Positions 1,709 to 11,464 of a stretch of 27,972 nt of DNA are shown here, one piece after another; position 1 is the stretch's first letter; each line of letters begins with the position of its first letter. The stretch comes from an uncultured archaeon (GTDB taxonomy: Archaea > Asgardarchaeota > Thorarchaeia > Thorarchaeales > Thorarchaeaceae). The stretch covers positions 1-27,972 of the forward strand of contig CAZSWP010000046.1 of NCBI GenBank assembly GCA_964610875.1. Reading direction: 5' to 3'. The position numbers were made by a program, and so were the translations under genes. The notes beneath the pieces are model-generated. The model was not told the origin of the DNA. It ran no database searches and saw only the letters and a list, made by a program, of their open reading frames with translations.

Positions 1709-2203
1709 CTACTCATCTAATCTTGGTCTGATTAACGTGTGGTAGTTGTCACATTCTCTACGCCATCCATATTTCATTTGAACCATCTCTTTTATGCTGT
1801 CACTTATTGCAACGCCCATTTGAATAGGCTCAAGAAATGAATCAAATTGATTTTCCAACTTTAATAAACCTGAATCAATTGATGTCAGGAAATACTCTCT
1901 TAGAATAGCAAGTGCCTTAATTCCATCTTTTATTGTTTGAATCTCAGCTCTAGTGATAATTTTGCGACGATGGACAACATCGTTCCGAAGGGTCCACATC
2001 TCCGATAAAGATTGACAGACATGTTTTGATACTGGTGGATATAGTGTTTCTACCCATCTTGCCATTCCCTTTGACTTCTTGATTGTATTCCTTGGAAGCT
2101 TAACTGCTTCAACATAATGATATGCAAGTGACTCCAGAGTGAAACAAGCACTCAATAATGCCTCTTGATACCTCTTCTCTCGATTATGATTTAGTGCCAT
2201 CAC
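1709..2203 (-). CDS. HEPN-domain protein (Apea-like HEPN type), probably N-terminally truncated
   Basis: N-terminal helix YQEALLSACFTLE and Rx4H motif LRNDVVH (~1970-1987). The frame is open only to a TAA at 2261-2263. Confidence 0.6.
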   Translation of the reverse strand: MMALNHNREKRYQEALLSACFTLESLAYHYVEAVKLPRNTIKKSKGMARWVETLYPPVSKHVCQSLSEMWTLRNDVVHRRKIITRAEIQTIKDGIKALAILREYFLTSIDSGLLKLENQFDSFLEPIQMGVAISDSIKEMVQMKYGWRRECDNYHTLIRPRLDE

Positions 2204-2392
2204 CCATTGTAGCTGATGAAATGCGGATTCTTCACAAGTTTTTAGATAATATAGATGAATTTAAAATTTCTATAAAATGTGAATTACACAAGCAGTATTG
2301 TACTGAAATCAGAGGGTATGCTAGAACCAATAAGACCATCTAGTCTGAGAACAATCAATCATTTCATATGAGATTATGTCTTCCATTCTCAT

Positions 2393-3382
2393 GTGAGTGG
2401 AATGGAGCTAGGTGTTTGGAATGAAACAGATGTATCATTCCCAGAAAACGAATGGATGGTCTGGACCTTAGATATGATGGTACGGGCTTCACAGGCTCGT
2501 TCAAAATATTATCAGTATCAGGATGCACAACTAGGAACTCTTGATTCGTATGATCCAGCAGCAATTGAGAACAGAGAAATCTGTAGGTTGATTGCAGTTG
2601 ACTTGATATTCACATTGCTACGCTCGATTGAAGCTTTCATTGGTGCTCTCTCAGTCTGCTGGAAAATAAGTACAGAACCAAAAAAAGTGAACACAACAAA
2701 GAAACTACACCAACGATTACTCAAATCTGATACAAATACAGACAGGAAAATACGAGAGATGTTCAGTGCAGACGAGATAGAAGACCAAACCCTATGTCAG
2801 TTGTGTGGATTTCCACTACCTGACGGACTACCATTGGATATGCGGTCAAAAAGGGTCCTTTGGGAAGTCTATGATCAGACTCTGAAACGTGTGAAACTCT
2901 ATGGGAAATATGCAGTCAGGTATCGAACCGAGTTCATGGAACTCAGGAATGCGTACTCTCATAATATGCGACTCCTCTTTCTAGAGGTATTTGATACCGA
3001 TGAAAAGAATCCTGAGAAGGGTGATGTGACAGGTGTTCTGGACAAGAAGAAATGCAGACCAAGTAACCTTACTTTACTCTGCAAGACACAACGTGAAGCC
3101 ACTGGTGAATTGACCTTCAGACTCTGTCAGGTGGAACAGATACTCTATGAGAACCTCAAGTTCTATGTCTGGAATGACTGTGTGCCAGTTCCACCAGTCG
3201 CAGCACTTCAAGTTCCCAGTAGGTTTCAAGAGGACTTGCGAAGAATCAAGCTCGAACTTGGATTCAACTGGATGATTCCTGCATTCAGAGTAGAGATGCA
3301 CGACAACAAAGGATTTGATGAGCAATATGATATCCACAGAAGTTTTCTCAAACGAGTGAAGAAACTGGGAAGTCGCGAATGA
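2393..3382 (+). CDS. hypothetical helical protein with HEPN-like RNxxxH motif (putative RNase)
   Basis: LRNAYSHN at 2945-2962 preceded by an amphipathic helix; upstream LLRSIEAF helix. Likely start ATG 2402. Confidence 0.5.
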   Translation: MSGMELGVWNETDVSFPENEWMVWTLDMMVRASQARSKYYQYQDAQLGTLDSYDPAAIENREICRLIAVDLIFTLLRSIEAFIGALSVCWKISTEPKKVNTTKKLHQRLLKSDTNTDRKIREMFSADEIEDQTLCQLCGFPLPDGLPLDMRSKRVLWEVYDQTLKRVKLYGKYAVRYRTEFMELRNAYSHNMRLLFLEVFDTDEKNPEKGDVTGVLDKKKCRPSNLTLLCKTQREATGELTFRLCQVEQILYENLKFYVWNDCVPVPPVAALQVPSRFQEDLRRIKLELGFNWMIPAFRVEMHDNKGFDEQYDIHRSFLKRVKKLGSRE

Positions 3383-3443: not shown

Positions 3444-5360
3444 TTATGAATCGAATCCAATAGATGTATCCAGTACTATGAGTCGGATATAGGACACATA
3501 CCATGTATCACGAGATAAATCACGAGAGTCTGTGACACCTCGCAATCGTATTTTGAAGGTTGAACTTGTCAACTTACCTGATACATCAAACTGATTGAGT
3601 CCCTCATCAAGATCAGTATCAAGAGTCTGCCATCCGTTGCTATAGTATTCAAGAATCAAGTTCTCAGAACCTGAGTGGTCATAGATATAGACCTGTAGTG
3701 TAGAATCATCGTATGCATTATAGTCCAGGCTTGTGAATTGGAATTCATACCTAAACCTGTACGTGTCCTGATCGTATCTCATCTTGACCTTGTGTGTGTC
3801 CACACCAACCCACTGTGACCCACTTATAGAAGCATAGTATCTCACCTTGAAATTACTATGCTGGTACTCGCTGTTTGTTGATGACCATGTCTTTTTCGTC
3901 CAAGCGTAATCATAGTTATAGGTGCCAACAGTGTCCCAGTATCCGTATTTGTCATAGACCTTTACTGTGAGAGTTCCACCATAGAAACCACAACACCAGT
4001 AGTAAGAGAGTTCCACTCTGTCTGCATCACTGGTGTCATATGTACGACTCTGAAGATACCCTGAACCTTCAGATGAAAGCTCTAGGTCCCTGCATTGGGC
4101 GTAGGACCCTGACTGTCCACCCCGGTTCTTCTTTATCCAACCTGCTCCTGATTGGACAGACCAACCAGAAGGTGGCACTGAGGTGAATGCTTCAGTCCAT
4201 GTATAGTATTCATCGTATGACGTTTCTTGGAGAGTTGCTGTATTGCTGCTTGACTGCATATTATTGAAATTCGTCACGGTTCCATAGACCTGTGAATAGG
4301 TATCGATATAGTCATACCAGTTCACCATTGATGGTTTTCCACGAATAGTGCCATCCCCAACATCATCTGCTGACTGACTGAATCTATCCGCATTGGCTTT
4401 GAGTCGTGATTCAATATTATTTGGAGTGATATCGAATATCTGACTTGAAGGTACATTATTGTATTGCTCTATCAGACACGCAGTCACACCAGCAGCTACA
4501 GGTGTGGCAATACTGGTACCTGTAACACTTGAATAAGAATCATAGCTATCATAGGTTGATGTATATACATCTACTCCAACTGCACAGAGTTCCAAATCGT
4601 TTCCGTGGCAGGATTCTGTATACCTCTGCCCAGCAGTTTTACCAATGTAGTCGTCTGCAGCTTCTGAATCATATACATTTCCTATACTCATGATTCCTCC
4701 ATAGTCTGGAGCTATCCATGCAGGCCACACTACATCTTCATTGCCTTCTTCTGTATTTCCTGCCGCGAGGAATATCGTGATTCCATCATCTCGGATGTTT
4801 TCAAGTGAAGTTTCCATACTGTTCTGTATTCCACTTGGTAGTCCTCCAGGATTGGATGTTCCTAGACTCATTGTCATTATATCCACTCCCTGATTGTTAT
4901 CGTCAAGATGTGACAAGGCGTAATCGACTGCCTGTGATTTCGAGTAAGAACCAACCGCATTTGCTTCATAGATGACGAATTTAACATCTGGAGCCATACG
5001 TCTTACTGCACCGACCATAGCTGTACCATGACCAGTCGAATCTGATACAATATTTGTATCATCCCATTTTGTATCACCACCTAGTGGTACTACTGCTGCT
5101 TGACAATATAGCTCGTTTTGTGCATTGACTTTTACTTCCCAATAATTAACGAGCTCATTGCTAGAATAGAGTTGATGTTTTATTGCACCTGAATCAATTA
5201 CTGCAACAACTACATCTGTTCCATCATAGCCCAAATCATCCATATAGTCAGCGCCCATCCACTCTGGTTCATTATTTCCACCTGCTTTCACAAGAACAGG
5301 TGTGTATAGAATAGTTATGCAGAGGGAAAGAACGACCAACAAGACATAGAGTCTTCTCAT
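3444..5360 (-). CDS. secreted S8 (subtilisin-like) serine peptidase with C-terminal beta-sandwich domains
   Basis: Signal peptide MRRLYVLLVVLSLCITIL...VKA. Triad motifs AVIDSG (D), GHGTAMVG (H) and GTSIATP (S); oxyanion AAGN. Aromatic/Thr/Ser-rich C-terminal domains. Confidence 0.92.
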   Translation of the reverse strand: MRRLYVLLVVLSLCITILYTPVLVKAGGNNEPEWMGADYMDDLGYDGTDVVVAVIDSGAIKHQLYSSNELVNYWEVKVNAQNELYCQAAVVPLGGDTKWDDTNIVSDSTGHGTAMVGAVRRMAPDVKFVIYEANAVGSYSKSQAVDYALSHLDDNNQGVDIMTMSLGTSNPGGLPSGIQNSMETSLENIRDDGITIFLAAGNTEEGNEDVVWPAWIAPDYGGIMSIGNVYDSEAADDYIGKTAGQRYTESCHGNDLELCAVGVDVYTSTYDSYDSYSSVTGTSIATPVAAGVTACLIEQYNNVPSSQIFDITPNNIESRLKANADRFSQSADDVGDGTIRGKPSMVNWYDYIDTYSQVYGTVTNFNNMQSSSNTATLQETSYDEYYTWTEAFTSVPPSGWSVQSGAGWIKKNRGGQSGSYAQCRDLELSSEGSGYLQSRTYDTSDADRVELSYYWCCGFYGGTLTVKVYDKYGYWDTVGTYNYDYAWTKKTWSSTNSEYQHSNFKVRYYASISGSQWVGVDTHKVKMRYDQDTYRFRYEFQFTSLDYNAYDDSTLQVYIYDHSGSENLILEYYSNGWQTLDTDLDEGLNQFDVSGKLTSSTFKIRLRGVTDSRDLSRDTWYVSYIRLIVLDTSIGFDS

Positions 5361-5392
5361 TTGTGTTTCTTTCAAATTCGTTTCACGTCCTC

Positions 5393-5573: not shown

Positions 5574-6137
5574 GTGGACACAATGGCGGGGGATAACAGT
5601 CCCACAGAAACAACCATTGGGACTTTCCTACTTGATGAGTTTCGTAGAGAGATTAAGGCCGAGATTGACCGCTGGAACACTATTGAGGACAAGGCAAACC
5701 GCACCTTCTCCTTCAGCTCCTCAGTCACAGCAATCCTCGTAGGGATATTCTCACTCGGGGAATCACTGGTGGAGCAAGGCATGCCGTCTTCACTCCTCTT
5801 GCCCTTTATCACCTCATACTGTATTGGCGTCCTCCTCTTTGCAGTATCAGCCGTCTTTGCCTTGAGAGCACTAGCAGTCGCACGGTACAAGAAGCCCTAT
5901 CTGAAACACTCACAGTCTGCCCTCACACTATACCTGTCAAGGACTGCAAAGGATGTAGAAGAAGAGCTGGTATCTATCTACGTAGGCTCACTGGAGTCCC
6001 TAATTGATAAGATTGAGACAAAGGCTGAGTCCGTGAAGTGGGCGCAATACATTGTCCTGCTTGCTGTCGCTTCCATCATTGTGTCGATGATATTCATTGT
6101 CGTAACCATGCTGGGATGGGTACCAACGGGAGTCTGA
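5574..6137 (+). CDS. 3-TM membrane protein resembling the Pycsar transmembrane effector family (PycTM/DUF5706-like)
   Basis: Pattern of N-terminal helix ending IEDKA, TM1, TM2 ending in ARYKKP, soluble helix, then ETKAESVKWA and TM3. The D-x-K-A and second K motifs match my recollection of PycTM-like proteins. Confidence 0.5.
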   Translation: MDTMAGDNSPTETTIGTFLLDEFRREIKAEIDRWNTIEDKANRTFSFSSSVTAILVGIFSLGESLVEQGMPSSLLLPFITSYCIGVLLFAVSAVFALRALAVARYKKPYLKHSQSALTLYLSRTAKDVEEELVSIYVGSLESLIDKIETKAESVKWAQYIVLLAVASIIVSMIFIVVTMLGWVPTGV

Positions 6138-6140
6138 TGG

Positions 6141-6737
6141 ATGATGAATGACAAAAAGAAGAGATACGTTGCTGACAGATATTCAAAGAGAACACAGAAG
6201 ACACTAGAAGAAGTGTGTAGAAGGTTAGCCAAGATAGAGACCTTAGTTTCAGATAAGGATAAGAAGCACAAAATCAAGCCATCAGAACACATCTACCTTG
6301 ACAGAGATGGAATAGTCCCTGAGGGTGAACATGACAAGACAGAATCCGTCTATCTTGGTACCTTTGATAACTTTCGAGAGTGGTGTCATGTACGCAGAGG
6401 CGTAGACATGGCCTCCGGAAGAGATGATGAGGACTCGGCTGGTCCACTCCCACAGTCTGACTTCAGAAGAGTTATTCGCGATTCAACGGTTGCAAAGATA
6501 GACCGCAGTAGGATAGCGAGACCAATCAGGCATTTTCCAAGACCTCGACCAACTTTTCCACGGTCACTAGGATTCATAATGAAACGTGCCATACAAGACT
6601 TTGCAAAATCAAACAACCTACAGGTAGGTAGCGACCTCTATGATGCACTCAACTATGAGATTCTCCATCTCATGGAACATGCCGCTTCCCGTGCAAAGGC
6701 AAACAAACGGAAGACGATCAAAGCATATGATTTCTAA
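6141..6737 (+). CDS. histone-fold protein (alpha3 / face-to-face-type fold at C-terminus) with long N-terminal extension
   Basis: Residues 145-198 FIMKRAIQDFAKSNNLQVGSDLYDALNYEILHLMEHAASRAKANKRKTIKAYDF carry the histone L2-alpha3 signature A..RA..N.RKTI...D and the short alpha1/alpha2 layout. Starts 3 nt after the upstream stop. Confidence 0.8.
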   Translation: MMNDKKKRYVADRYSKRTQKTLEEVCRRLAKIETLVSDKDKKHKIKPSEHIYLDRDGIVPEGEHDKTESVYLGTFDNFREWCHVRRGVDMASGRDDEDSAGPLPQSDFRRVIRDSTVAKIDRSRIARPIRHFPRPRPTFPRSLGFIMKRAIQDFAKSNNLQVGSDLYDALNYEILHLMEHAASRAKANKRKTIKAYDF

Positions 6738-6769: not shown

Positions 6770-7810
6770 CTACTTTGTCACCTTAAAGAGGCCTGCTGGA
6801 GTTGCTGTCTTGACTTGCTTTGCTCCGGCTTCCTTCGCCCATTGAATGAAGTGTTCCTTCTCAATTGCACCGTATGCACCTTCATTCAGAAGGATGTAGA
6901 GTTCGATATACGGGTCAAGCATAGGGATGAACGCTTCAGTACCAAAGAACAATCCATCGGGTTTCAGAACACGAATCATCTCTTTTGTGGCTCGTTCTGC
7001 ATCACACCAGTGAATCACCTGCGAGGTGTAGACGATATCAAAGAAATCATCCTCGAACGGTAAGTTATCTGCAGAGCCTTGCAGGTACTCTGGATGGAAA
7101 TCGCCCAGTTCCTCAATGACTTGTTTATCAACACCAAGATGACGTGCTGCGTACTGGACAAACTCGTCTTCAGCGATCTGCAACAGACCGGCGTCGTACT
7201 CCAAGGCGTAGAGATTGACGGGTCGGTCCGAATCAAATGCTCCTTCCTTGTAATAATAGCTCCAGATTGCAGCAGTCCCGATTCCACTTCCACAACCCAC
7301 ATCGAAAAAGGAACCTCTGTGTTTCAATGCGGAAGCATACTTGAACGCAGCCCGGCGTATCTGTTCATACATCTTCAGCTGCAGTGAGTCGTCCCAGTTG
7401 AAGAGATTCATATCATCTGAGAATGTTATGTAATGACCTCGCAGACGACTGGGAATTGCCTCAGCCGAGTCGGCTACAATCTCAGCCATTCCCTGTCCGA
7501 ACACTTCTGGGGGTTCAGCTGAGAACTCAGGCACAACCCCGTTCACCTTGTAAGCATATTCATGCTGTATCAGGATATCATCTTCGGCGAACACATCCAA
7601 CACTTTTGAGAGGTACTTCAGGTCCTCATAGCCAAAGTGGTCAGAGATATCTTGAAGAGTTCTTGGTTTTGTCAGGTAATCGAACAGTCCCTCTCGTCTG
7701 AGTATATTGACTGAGTTTGCACGATAGAAGTTCTTCAGTTCCGTCTTATGTCTACGGATATTTCCACCCAGTTTTAGTAGTTGTAACCATGCACCAATTA
7801 ATGAAGCCAT
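6770..7810 (-). CDS. class I SAM-dependent methyltransferase with N-terminal winged-helix/dimerisation domain
   Basis: Motif I FFDVGCGSG, ALEYD, GSADNLPFEDDFFDIV, EMIRVLKPDG. N-terminal GLFDYLTKPRTLQDISDHFG helix-turn-helix. SD GAGGTGA upstream. Confidence 0.88.
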   Translation of the reverse strand: MASLIGAWLQLLKLGGNIRRHKTELKNFYRANSVNILRREGLFDYLTKPRTLQDISDHFGYEDLKYLSKVLDVFAEDDILIQHEYAYKVNGVVPEFSAEPPEVFGQGMAEIVADSAEAIPSRLRGHYITFSDDMNLFNWDDSLQLKMYEQIRRAAFKYASALKHRGSFFDVGCGSGIGTAAIWSYYYKEGAFDSDRPVNLYALEYDAGLLQIAEDEFVQYAARHLGVDKQVIEELGDFHPEYLQGSADNLPFEDDFFDIVYTSQVIHWCDAERATKEMIRVLKPDGLFFGTEAFIPMLDPYIELYILLNEGAYGAIEKEHFIQWAKEAGAKQVKTATPAGLFKVTK

Positions 7811-7826
7811 GTTATCACCTCATAGG

Positions 7827-8753
7827 TTATCCTAAAATATTCCTTCGATTTACAAAATCCACCAGCTCAAAGACCTCTTTGTACCGAGAACAATATTTGT
7901 CTTCTAACACCTCAATGAGTGTAGTGTAGCCCCTCAGAAGAGGTCCAAGGATGTCTTTAGCGATAGGAAATCTTCTTGCAGTACGTTCGACAATACTAGG
8001 TATCCGTTCTTCAAAGGGAGTCTGAAACTTGGCAAAGAGCATATCCGCATTCAGGATCTGTTCGAGAATTGATGAGGAAACCTCGTCATCTAACTCTAGA
8101 ATGCGAAAGACAAGATTCAGAATCCTACTTCTGGGGACAATACTATCCTCGGACTCTTCGACAATGAGCGGAGCGACTGACTGAAATTTCTCAATCATTA
8201 CACCATCTATAAAACTCAGACACAGAACGCGAGTGTCAGAACTCCAGCAGTAGATGTCAAGGTCAGCAAACTGAACCTTCAGTGGTTGCGGTAGTTCTGT
8301 ATAGATACAAGCTGCCTCCTCAAGACGGTTCAAGACATGATAAGACATCTCTGTAGCATTCAGATTCTTCGGGCTTACGATATCCACAACCCATCTGTGT
8401 TTCCTGCTTATCAGGAAGGCGAATTGCAGGTGTTCCAGTTGTTTAGTTATGGGTGTGTCTTCATGATAGACCCAATAATCAGGTGTACTCTCTGTAACTG
8501 TGTCAAGCTTCTCAAGTGGTTCTATGTATGCATCTCTATGCCCACGGAAGAACCCCATCTGGTCAACAATCACTGAATTGTAGTGACGTTCATGATCAGT
8601 ATCATGATAGACACGAAAGGTCGTCAATTTCATCCCGAAAAAGTCATCGTGATCGCTCTGCGAGATGAAGGTTTCTGAATCTTTTAGGTCGAGGGCGATC
8701 TCCGCACCACATACTCTACATGCAAACTTGGTAACAGTTCGTGTTAGTGTCAT
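7827..8753 (-). CDS. hypothetical protein with N-terminal CxxC...H...H Zn-binding module and possible longin-like central domain
   Basis: FACRVCG...RVYH...ERHYNSVIVDQMGFFRGH. Central beta/alpha pattern. SD AGGAG upstream; 19-bp gap to the GTPase gene. Confidence 0.6.
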   Translation of the reverse strand: MTLTRTVTKFACRVCGAEIALDLKDSETFISQSDHDDFFGMKLTTFRVYHDTDHERHYNSVIVDQMGFFRGHRDAYIEPLEKLDTVTESTPDYWVYHEDTPITKQLEHLQFAFLISRKHRWVVDIVSPKNLNATEMSYHVLNRLEEAACIYTELPQPLKVQFADLDIYCWSSDTRVLCLSFIDGVMIEKFQSVAPLIVEESEDSIVPRSRILNLVFRILELDDEVSSSILEQILNADMLFAKFQTPFEERIPSIVERTARRFPIAKDILGPLLRGYTTLIEVLEDKYCSRYKEVFELVDFVNRRNILG

Positions 8754-8772
8754 TCTTTTGGATTCTCCTTGG

Positions 8773-9396
8773 TCATTTAGTAGCTATGTATTCAACAAGC
8801 CAGTCCTTCAGGTTATTCACACCTTGACCATCCAGGCAGCTGATCTCAAAATATGCCTCAGCAAGAGGTTCCGACTTCATGAATTGCTCAACCAGACCCG
8901 GGTCAATACTGCGGTCTAAGTCACTCTTGTTCATAATGAGGACGAAGCGTAGTGATTTACTAGGGTTCTCTACATATTGTGATTTGACGATTGACGCCCA
9001 GTCTCGCAAGTCCAGTAGTGATTGTAGATTATCTGCTGCAAAGAGAAGTAGAACAAGGTCTACACCTTTGATAGCAATATCACTGAGGTCTCTCAGTGCA
9101 TGAATAGGTGCATCGAGCTGTCCTGCAACATCCACCATCAAAAATACTCCTTTAGAACCTGTTCCCCCAATTCGCTCGACACCAATGGTCTCTAGATTAA
9201 TGAACGGAGTTCGATGATACGCAGAAACAGAATCTGACTCGGCTAATGGTTCACCCTTTTGTAGGGTTCTAACAAGTGTGGTCTTACCCACAGCTCCAGA
9301 ACCAGCTACTAAGACTTTGATAACACCTAGCTTCCTCTCGTTAGTACTCACTGATAGTTCACTCTCTTGCGATGAGGTTCTTGTTGTGTTAGCCAT
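8773..9396 (-). CDS. Ras/Rab-like small GTPase
   Basis: G1 GSGAVGKTT, G2 YHRT, G3 DVAGQ, G4 NKSD, G5 EISC. No C-terminal prenylation motif. Confidence 0.92.
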   Translation of the reverse strand: MANTTRTSSQESELSVSTNERKLGVIKVLVAGSGAVGKTTLVRTLQKGEPLAESDSVSAYHRTPFINLETIGVERIGGTGSKGVFLMVDVAGQLDAPIHALRDLSDIAIKGVDLVLLLFAADNLQSLLDLRDWASIVKSQYVENPSKSLRFVLIMNKSDLDRSIDPGLVEQFMKSEPLAEAYFEISCLDGQGVNNLKDWLVEYIATK

Positions 9397-9886: not shown

Positions 9887-11386
9887 TCATTGTATCTCTT
9901 GTAGATGATTTAGAGCCCATCTACCTTTCTCAGTAATGGTAAAGAATTTCCGAACAGTCTTCCTTATTGTTTGTTCTGTTCGCGAACTGGTAATGAGTCC
10001 GTCTTCTACTAGTTCATTGAGATGTTGGTAGACTGTAGGAATAGAAACTTCGCATTCATAATCATCTCTCAGCGTCTTCCATATCTTGTAACCGTAGGAA
10101 TCACTTGTTGAGAGAATCTGAAGAATGATGGCCTTTGTGGCTCCCAATCGTTTCATCTGATGTCTGCCTTCTCTTCTACTCAAGAAACTTGCCAATTCCT
10201 TTCTATCCTGTACTAGTGTTCTTGTGAATTCCGGATACTTCAGACCCATTCCTGTTATTACACATATGACAGTGTCAGACCTGTCTATGATTCGGTTATC
10301 AACGAGTTTTTTCAAAGCAGCTATTGTTGTAGCTGATGCAGGTTCTGCAAACACTCCTTCGTATTTAGCCAAATCAGCTATTGCATCAAGAATCTCCTCA
10401 TCTGAAACCCCTATTGCAGTACCTTCTGACTCTTTGATTGCTTGTATTGCCATGTGACCACAGGTCGGCTGTCTAATGGCGATATCTTTTGCGATTGTTT
10501 CAGATTCTCTAGTCAGTTGAGGCATAGTGGATGCTGCCTGAAATCCTTCGACGATTGGCGCACAATTATATGCCTGAGTACCAATCAAGCCGATTCTTGA
10601 ATCGTCAATGAATCCAATCTCTCGAAATTCTCCAATTGCCTTCCATATCATTGCAAGGTGACATCCACTTCCCATAGGTGCCACAATCCAGTCTGGGTAG
10701 GATCCTTGAAGCTGATCCAAAATCTCATACGCCGTTGTTTTGACGCCTTCAAGGAACCATGGATTTGATGGTGACACAATATGACTATTGCGTTTCCTTT
10801 TTGCTGACCTGTGGCTTGTTTCTCTCGCATCCTTGACAATTTGTACATCTGTACCATAAGCGAGTATCTGATAGAGCTTTCCGATATCTATTCGACTGTC
10901 TTTTGAGATATAGATCTCACTCTTCAGACTTGCTCGTGCGGCATATGCTACCAATGATGCGGCAAGATTTCCAGTAGTTCCCGATAACACTGTTGATATT
11001 CCAAATTCCTTGGCTTTTGATATCTCTACAGATGTCCCTCTGTCAATAAATGCCCCTGTAGGATTATGGGTTTCATCCTTTAGATAAAGCTCAGACAAAC
11101 CAATCCGTTCTGCATATCTCCGCCCTTTGAGCAGAGGTGTACCCCCCTCTCCAAGTGTGACGATATAGCTTGGATTGGTAATTGGCAACAGTTCAGAATA
11201 TTTCCAGAGTCCTGGTGGTCTGGATGTGAACGTGTTTCGGTCAATTCTCTCAGATATCTTAGACAATTCATAACGGATCCCAATAATGCCTCCACATACT
11301 GGGCAGGTTCTTTGAAGAGTATCTTCTTCCAGAACGTTTCTACATTCTCCACAAAATGAAGTGTAAGTCCTAATATGACGGCTCAT
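9887..11386 (-). CDS. threonine-synthase-like (fold-type II PLP) protein lacking the catalytic Lys, fused to a C-terminal PadR-like wHTH; probable transcription regulator
   Basis: N-terminal CxxC..CxxC, LGEGGTPL, KDETHNPTGAFIDRG (canonical SFKDRG), TTGNLA, PMGSGC, EPASA, VITGMGLK. C-terminal ILQIL...SYGYKIWKTL...SIPTVYQHLNELVEDGLI...RKFFTITEKG. Likely start ATG 11386. Confidence 0.85.
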   Translation of the reverse strand: MSRHIRTYTSFCGECRNVLEEDTLQRTCPVCGGIIGIRYELSKISERIDRNTFTSRPPGLWKYSELLPITNPSYIVTLGEGGTPLLKGRRYAERIGLSELYLKDETHNPTGAFIDRGTSVEISKAKEFGISTVLSGTTGNLAASLVAYAARASLKSEIYISKDSRIDIGKLYQILAYGTDVQIVKDARETSHRSAKRKRNSHIVSPSNPWFLEGVKTTAYEILDQLQGSYPDWIVAPMGSGCHLAMIWKAIGEFREIGFIDDSRIGLIGTQAYNCAPIVEGFQAASTMPQLTRESETIAKDIAIRQPTCGHMAIQAIKESEGTAIGVSDEEILDAIADLAKYEGVFAEPASATTIAALKKLVDNRIIDRSDTVICVITGMGLKYPEFTRTLVQDRKELASFLSRREGRHQMKRLGATKAIILQILSTSDSYGYKIWKTLRDDYECEVSIPTVYQHLNELVEDGLITSSRTEQTIRKTVRKFFTITEKGRWALNHLQEIQ

Positions 11387-11387
11387 A

Positions 11388-11416
11388 CCTATATATAGGC
11401 TTTTACTTATATATAA
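11388..11416. promoter_or_regulatory. TATA box and adjacent palindrome in a divergent promoter
   Basis: Perfect palindrome CCTATATATAGG at 11388-11399. TTATATATAA at 11407-11416, about 25 nt upstream of ATG 11386 on the - strand. Confidence 0.5.
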
Positions 11417-11464
11417 TTTGAGTGGGGAGTTAATCAAAGCAAGTAATCTCTACAAAGGAAGTAT

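Follow-up and report, generated by a model that had tools for sequence, protein, structure and literature searches.

A PycTM-like membrane protein gene coupled to a gene for a domain-histone fusion protein in an Asgard archaeon

Two co-oriented genes in a stretch of 27,972 nucleotides from an uncultured archaeon of the Thorarchaeales (the window) form a module of about 1.2 kb, in which a membrane protein distantly related to the Pycsar effector PycTM is followed by a partner protein with an N-terminal domain and a C-terminal histone fold. The membrane and partner genes are co-inherited, coupled by their layout, sporadic in occurrence and located at variable sites. The parts have known relatives, and the pair, the domain and the histone fusion class are undescribed in the literature searched, which comprised papers outside subscription journals; within that scope no described system of this kind was found, and the first-pass annotation likewise knew of no such pairing. 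The module brings an undescribed domain family and a new class of alpha3-histone fusion to Asgard archaea, together with a lineage of PycTM-like effectors that is passed on with adaptor proteins in place of cyclases across the Thor-, Hel- and another Asgard family.

Layout of the module

Re-reading of both frames agreed with the coordinates, spacing and co-orientation given by the first-pass annotation, with the TGA of ORF1 at 6135-6137, 3 nt, and then the ATG of ORF2 at 6141. The opposite-strand flanks were also as annotated, namely an S8 peptidase gene (3444-5375, minus strand) and a class I methyltransferase gene (6770-7810, minus strand). The start of ORF1 may be GTG 5574 or ATG 5583, and the database call is 184 aa. 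The features of the module are as follows.

5574-6137, plus strand: ORF1, membrane protein (184-187 aa) of the PycTM-like sister lineage with the motif "ExxR...ExKA" (profile searches, Atlas features, alignment, model, tree)
6129-6143, plus strand: coupling junction, with SD-like GGGAG in the last ORF1 codons, the stop, 3 nt and ATG (sequence)
6141-6737, plus strand: ORF2, partner protein, comprising the next three features
6165-6509, plus strand: constant N-terminal partner domain, aa ~9-123 (family alignment, model)
6510-6560, plus strand: Arg/Pro-rich low-confidence linker, aa ~118-140 (pLDDT <50 at 118-134)
6561-6737, plus strand: face-to-face (alpha3-truncated) histone fold, aa 141-198 (sequence and structure matches)

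In the homologues, the terminal Gly-Gly codons of the membrane gene often read GGAGG, and the stop and start overlapped in L030, L031 and L041 and were otherwise 3-11 nt apart. ORF1 and ORF2 had GC contents of 49.6% and 44.1%, compared with a genome value of 40.7% and a window value of 41.1%. ORF1 had been described as GC-richer than the housekeeping genes, and the excess is real but modest, since ahcY and the methyltransferase gene reached 46.0% and 46.9%, respectively.

The window is contig C46 of a genome that is 95% complete. In one study, two metagenome runs, one of which may be the source sample, yielded contigs that bridge the junction between ORF1 and ORF2 without differences, and one of them also spans the junction between domain and histone. 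The fusion in ORF2 is therefore no assembly error, and an assembly chimera was rejected.

ORF1 is related to PycTM and lies outside the PycTM family

The model of ORF1 was all helical, with a long N-terminal helix leading into a moderately hydrophobic segment and two strong TM helices at about residues 81-99 and 157-175 (184-aa form), giving two to three helices in the membrane overall. The PADLOC model of PycTM matched ORF1 at E 0.04 over most of its length, one homologue was graded "weak" for PycTM, and the membrane proteins of a sister clade matched at E 2.5e-4 and 1.6e-3. ORF1 aligned full-length with true PycTMs and retrieved the true PycTM of the same genome at E 0.006, its Atlas look-alikes included a cluster with 10% PycTM, and the profile of its lineage, with one PycTM added, picked up cyclase-linked PycTMs. 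The profile scan of ORF1 with PF18967 gave no match, and the fold searches with its model gave generic helical bundles only, with no PycTM among the matches listed. The control PycTM from the same genome reached a PADLOC E of 1e-24.

In the tree, which included Asgard PycTMs, eight of them adjoining real PycC cyclases, ORF1 grouped with another set of membrane proteins as a clade separate from the ADxKA-type PycTMs (support 100/99), and its nesting inside the cyclase-linked true PycTMs was rejected (AU p=0.0009), the branches being long. The lineages also differed in the N-terminal motif, which is ExxR...(I/L)ExKA in that of ORF1 and (L/I)ADxKA in PycTM, while the KA of the N-terminal helix and, towards the C terminus, the basic residue that precedes the final TM helix are common to both. 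Judged from these sequences, ORF1 is a distantly related sister lineage of PycTM and not a member of its family. The PycTM-type protein of the first-pass annotation thus held as a likeness and failed as a family assignment.

Pycsar PycC-PycTM (PF18967; PMC11224242) and the CBASS 2TM effectors resemble ORF1 in length and helical layout and can be aligned with it end to end. PycTM is a membrane-disrupting abortive-infection effector (PMC11224242), but the function of ORF1 need not be that of PycTM, since ORF1 lies outside the PycTM clade; it would work like PycTM at best, and the module does not appear to be a member of Pycsar. Both systems consist of two genes, but the module is without a cyclase and its partner is a protein adaptor. 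No cyclase or CD-NTase was recognisable among the ORF translations of the window, nine ORFs near the locus being Pfam-scanned, as the first-pass annotation had reported, and no class III cyclase or PycC (PF00211, PDLC02367) was found in the genome. No adjacent PycC was found at any examined locus of the ORF1 lineage, whereas eight true-PycTM loci have one.

Two further members of these lineages were observed. In a bacterial (Phycisphaerales) member of the ORF1 membrane lineage (L089:2842-4570), the partner is again different: the gene overlaps one for an ATP-grasp ligase, next to a transposase-like ORF. In the genome of the window, a true PycTM on the minus strand (G000:C4:236-775, L050), over the Pfam cut-off and with a PADLOC E of 1e-24, is without an adjacent cyclase; it lies 236 bp from the contig end, and close relatives carry PycC at that spot.

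The N-terminal domain is the constant part of the partner

The N-terminal part of ORF2, which the first-pass annotation had taken as an extension of the histone, is a real domain and no mere tail. Its ~110 residues were modelled as a helix, a beta-knuckle or hairpin, a short helix, a strand and a helix, with pLDDT of about 85-94 over residues 11-80, and two cysteines, C26 and C82, are invariant in the family. Word-index protein searches with either ORF returned the query alone, and the family emerged only when 1.84 billion proteins were scanned in full by HMMER, which gave three full-length histone-bearing relatives, P0003 (two histones), P0004 and P0008, and six proteins with the domain but without a histone. 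After locus reading and one further search, the family comprised 15 proteins at 10 loci. Comparison of the domain with Pfam and PDB profiles gave nothing significant, the matches listed in the structure searches with ORF2 were filled by histones, pattern scans of genome and metagenome contigs gave no new members, and neither gene was found in viral contigs, phage records, or plasmids. Both genes are under purifying selection, with dN/dS of close pairs of 0.21-0.25 for the domain and 0.17-0.25 for both genes.

An ORF1 homologue (30-42% identity) lay directly upstream of the partner at 8 of the 10 loci, namely the window, L029, L030, L031, L032, L035, L037 and L041; L031/L035 and L037/L041 are close kin, which leaves about six independent lineages, and a number of the loci sit on short contigs that derive from related samples. 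At the other two loci, an overlapping 154-aa gene of unread sequence (P0003) was present or the membrane gene was not directly upstream (L028). Conversely, a full-length membrane gene in L083 had no downstream partner, and one further membrane gene was truncated. The pair proposed in the first-pass annotation thus recurs in other genomes without a cyclase, but the histone does not qualify as the substitute for the cyclase, as it was present in only 4 of the 15 family members (4 of the 10 loci). The other tails were acidic, Lys/Arg-rich, helical, beta-rich (a domain judged by eye to resemble Ig) or almost absent (P0005, P0026), and tandem arrays stood behind one membrane gene, with three partner genes in L031 and four in L035. 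Since the tails differ and the confirmed loci with both membrane gene and histone are only two (the window and L029), the unit must be redrawn around the N-terminal domain as a constant effector, a constant adaptor and a variable tail. Complex prediction with two effectors and two partner domains scored 0.00 and was evidence neither way.

A sister clade is paired with a B-box-like finger

Sister membrane genes were found at five loci in four other Asgard genomes (Helarchaeota, Hermodarchaeota, and an uncultured archaeon), and at all five the membrane gene adjoined a small protein with a CxxC...YxC...LC...C...HxGH finger. This finger matched B-box and UBR-box models weakly, with zf-B_box below the cut-off (E 0.002-0.009), its tails were again variable (Pro-rich, basic, or membrane helices), and among 400 Asgard genomes the family occurred in those five places only. 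Alignment of the ORF2 domain with the first half of the finger by hhalign covered 24 columns (E 4e-4, probability 35%), with a score of 27.2 against a mean of 10.1 and a maximum of 18.5 in 150 shuffles, and the B-box partner ranked second of 23,178 ORFs (E 0.03). The order of elements predicted for the domain was compatible with the finger. On the basis of these comparisons and the shared gene context, the N-terminal domain of ORF2 probably descends from a B-box/treble-clef finger and is degenerate, with most zinc ligands lost. At L045:786-1451, downstream of a PycTM-like gene, a B-box-like finger was fused to several membrane helices.

The C-terminal part is a face-to-face histone

The C-terminal part of ORF2 is an intact face-to-face (alpha3) histone fold, as the first-pass annotation had proposed. 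The best structural matches of residues 141-198 were 9QT0, 9F2C and 8CMP, with a phmmer E of 3.5e-4 for 9F2C, and the nearest named histones by sequence and structure were HTkC (9F2C), HLp (9QT0) and HBb. Tetramerization and DNA binding of face-to-face histones, which tetramerise on DNA, involve R41/N45, the RxTxxxxD motif and alpha1 lysines (Schwab et al. 2024, PMC11390915). The ORF2 histone keeps R184, N188, the RxTxxxxD motif (R190, T192, D197) and a free C-terminal residue, F198, with K147 and K157 as alpha1 lysines. Two stand-alone paralogues in the same genome were 49-52% identical to it, and the stand-alone histones of relatives up to 61%. Because of these identities and the presence of all tetramer and DNA residues, the ORF2 histone appears by sequence to have been captured from the host lineage's own stand-alone histones. 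One capture and several were not told apart by trees (p-AU 0.29), the histone tree being poorly resolved. Frames of 129-139 aa around the relatives' histones were rejected as extensions, having an internal Met and unrelated upstream sequence.

In contrast to HTkC and HLp, the ORF2 histone is fused behind a 140-aa region, and its gene shares an operon with one for a membrane protein. The ZZ histones (PMC11390915) share the plan of ORF2, an N-terminal accessory domain followed by a C-terminal alpha3 histone. However, their accessory domain is a treble-clef zinc finger, while the ORF2 domain is without C4/C2H2 ligands, with only C26 and C82 invariant, no CxxC pairs, and Ser in place of the knuckle Cys; their histone is of the bacterial-dimer type lacking the tetramer R/N, while that of ORF2 is archaeal face-to-face with R184 and N188; and no link to a membrane effector has been described for them. 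The likeness is therefore probably convergent. In the Rab histones of Asgard archaea (PMC11390915), a face-to-face-like histone has been captured in the same way.

Genomic context

The module was present in 2 of 400 Asgard genomes. In the window it adjoins an operon (6770-9396, minus strand) that encodes a small Ras-like GTPase, an unknown protein of 308 aa whose N-terminal part has a CxxC, and a class I methyltransferase with a winged helix. The operon is conserved in seven or more related genomes of Thorarchaeia, but its downstream site is occupied by other genes in the eight related loci listed; the module therefore lies at a variable site. Defence-type neighbours were found at some loci, namely a NucC-like nuclease directly upstream, a TIR_2 protein, and the genes for Schlafen AlbA_2 and HEPN_AbiV, between which lies P0003 (JGI 3300042731 contig), whose domain is followed by two tandem face-to-face histone folds. 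Most loci had no recognised defence gene nearby. One module copy had a tRNA gene 35 nt downstream, and the loci showed neither integrase nor plasmid genes.

Other genes of the window were also observed. A HEPN-like ORF (weak, E 0.007) is divergent from an unannotated 329-aa ORF at 1709-3382, a region possibly part of the same variable island as the module. The S8 subtilase (3444-5375), divergent from the module, is secreted and has a long beta-rich C-terminal region, and a threonine-synthase-like protein (9887-11437, minus strand) seemingly ends in a PadR-like winged helix, judged by eye from the translation.

Possible mechanism and alternatives

Toxin-antitoxin and guard systems, as well as integrated-decoy NLR pairs, combine a constant effector with a partner carrying exchangeable accessory domains copied from the host. 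The module resembles them in plan, with no sequence relationship, and we infer a likeness of mechanism. Tentatively, at a chance somewhat short of even, the module would be a cyclase-free guard or toxin-antitoxin-like defence module, an adaptor with exchangeable sensor or decoy tails. This reading is favoured because the effector comes first, the partner is coupled, the tails are exchangeable, and arrays and rarity are seen; it is supported by the co-occurrence at 8 of 10 loci, the pairing at all five sister loci, dN/dS of 0.17-0.25, the variable site and the defence neighbours. Against it stand L028 without an upstream membrane gene, L083 without a partner, the link to the B-box on 24 columns (probability 35%), the majority of loci without a recognised defence neighbour, and the several short contigs from related samples.

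In such a guard module, the membrane protein would oligomerise and breach the membrane on release, as its PycTM/CBASS-2TM relatives do. The constant B-box-derived domain would bind the cytoplasmic helices of the membrane protein and hold the effector inactive, a control that would replace the input by a cyclic nucleotide, and the tail would serve as sensor or decoy. The captured face-to-face histone would co-assemble with host histones on DNA, so that the effector would be set free when a virus degrades chromatin, when histones are displaced or when the partner is lost, and the different tails in an array of 3-4 partners would let the module respond to more triggers. If the guard model is true, the histone would act as bait in immunity, and fingers of the B-box type would take part in immunity in those prokaryotes that are the closest relatives of eukaryotes. 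A more far-reaching version, to which we give only a minor chance, is a second-messenger-free, Asgard-specific immunity with a PycTM-like pore under B-box-derived adaptors with integrated decoys, one of them the host histone, by which the state of chromatin would be monitored, in parallel to the TRIM/B-box and integrated-decoy immunity of eukaryotes.

It is unlikely that the module is instead a membrane anchor without a role in defence, in which the membrane protein would be the docking site and the partner would tether chromatin by the histone and other ligands by the other tails, for signalling or anchoring of the nucleoid. The histone keeps all the residues for the face-to-face tetramer and for DNA binding, operons of RdgC histones with membrane proteins and a fusion of Rab-GTPase with histone have been described (PMC11390915), and known defence neighbours are absent at most loci. 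However, a module that is found in 2 of 400 genomes, sits at variable sites, exchanges its tails rapidly and forms tandem arrays is more in keeping with conflict genes than with housekeeping, and the histone is missing from most members.

Closest to the idea of the first-pass annotation, and rather improbable, is an activator instead of a guard, in which binding of foreign DNA or a viral protein to the tail would cluster the partner, four adaptor domains being gathered by the histone tetramer, and switch the membrane protein on. In TRIM proteins, B-box domains bring about higher-order assembly, and face-to-face histones tetramerise on DNA (PMC11390915) through residues that are intact in ORF2, but a host-like histone would bind host DNA constantly, with no obvious contrast between self and non-self, and several partners are nearly tailless (P0005, P0026).

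A selfish toxin-antitoxin cassette without a function in immunity, in which the histone or basic tail would only add DNA binding for autoregulation or be carried along neutrally, is improbable. Antitoxins commonly carry DNA-binding domains, and the toxin-first coupled layout of two genes, the sporadic spread and the copy beside a tRNA gene would suit such addiction, but addiction does not require diverged partners, as many as four in an array, whose tails are acidic or beta-rich, and no integrase or plasmid gene was seen.

Very improbable is an orphan Pycsar-type receptor with an incidental neighbour and a cyclic nucleotide made elsewhere in the genome, since, although a true PycTM besides ORF1 lies in this 95% complete assembly with no cyclase next to it, searches of the assembly for PF00211 and PycC found no match, none of the lineage loci examined has the adjacent cyclase of the eight true-PycTM loci, and the association with the partner is tight. 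Apparently complete loci of PycTM with PycC occur in several Asgard families, with the cyclase confirmed by PADLOC in L063 and by translation in L065, L066, L067, L070, L072, L076 and L081, and the two genes are convergent in L066 and L081.
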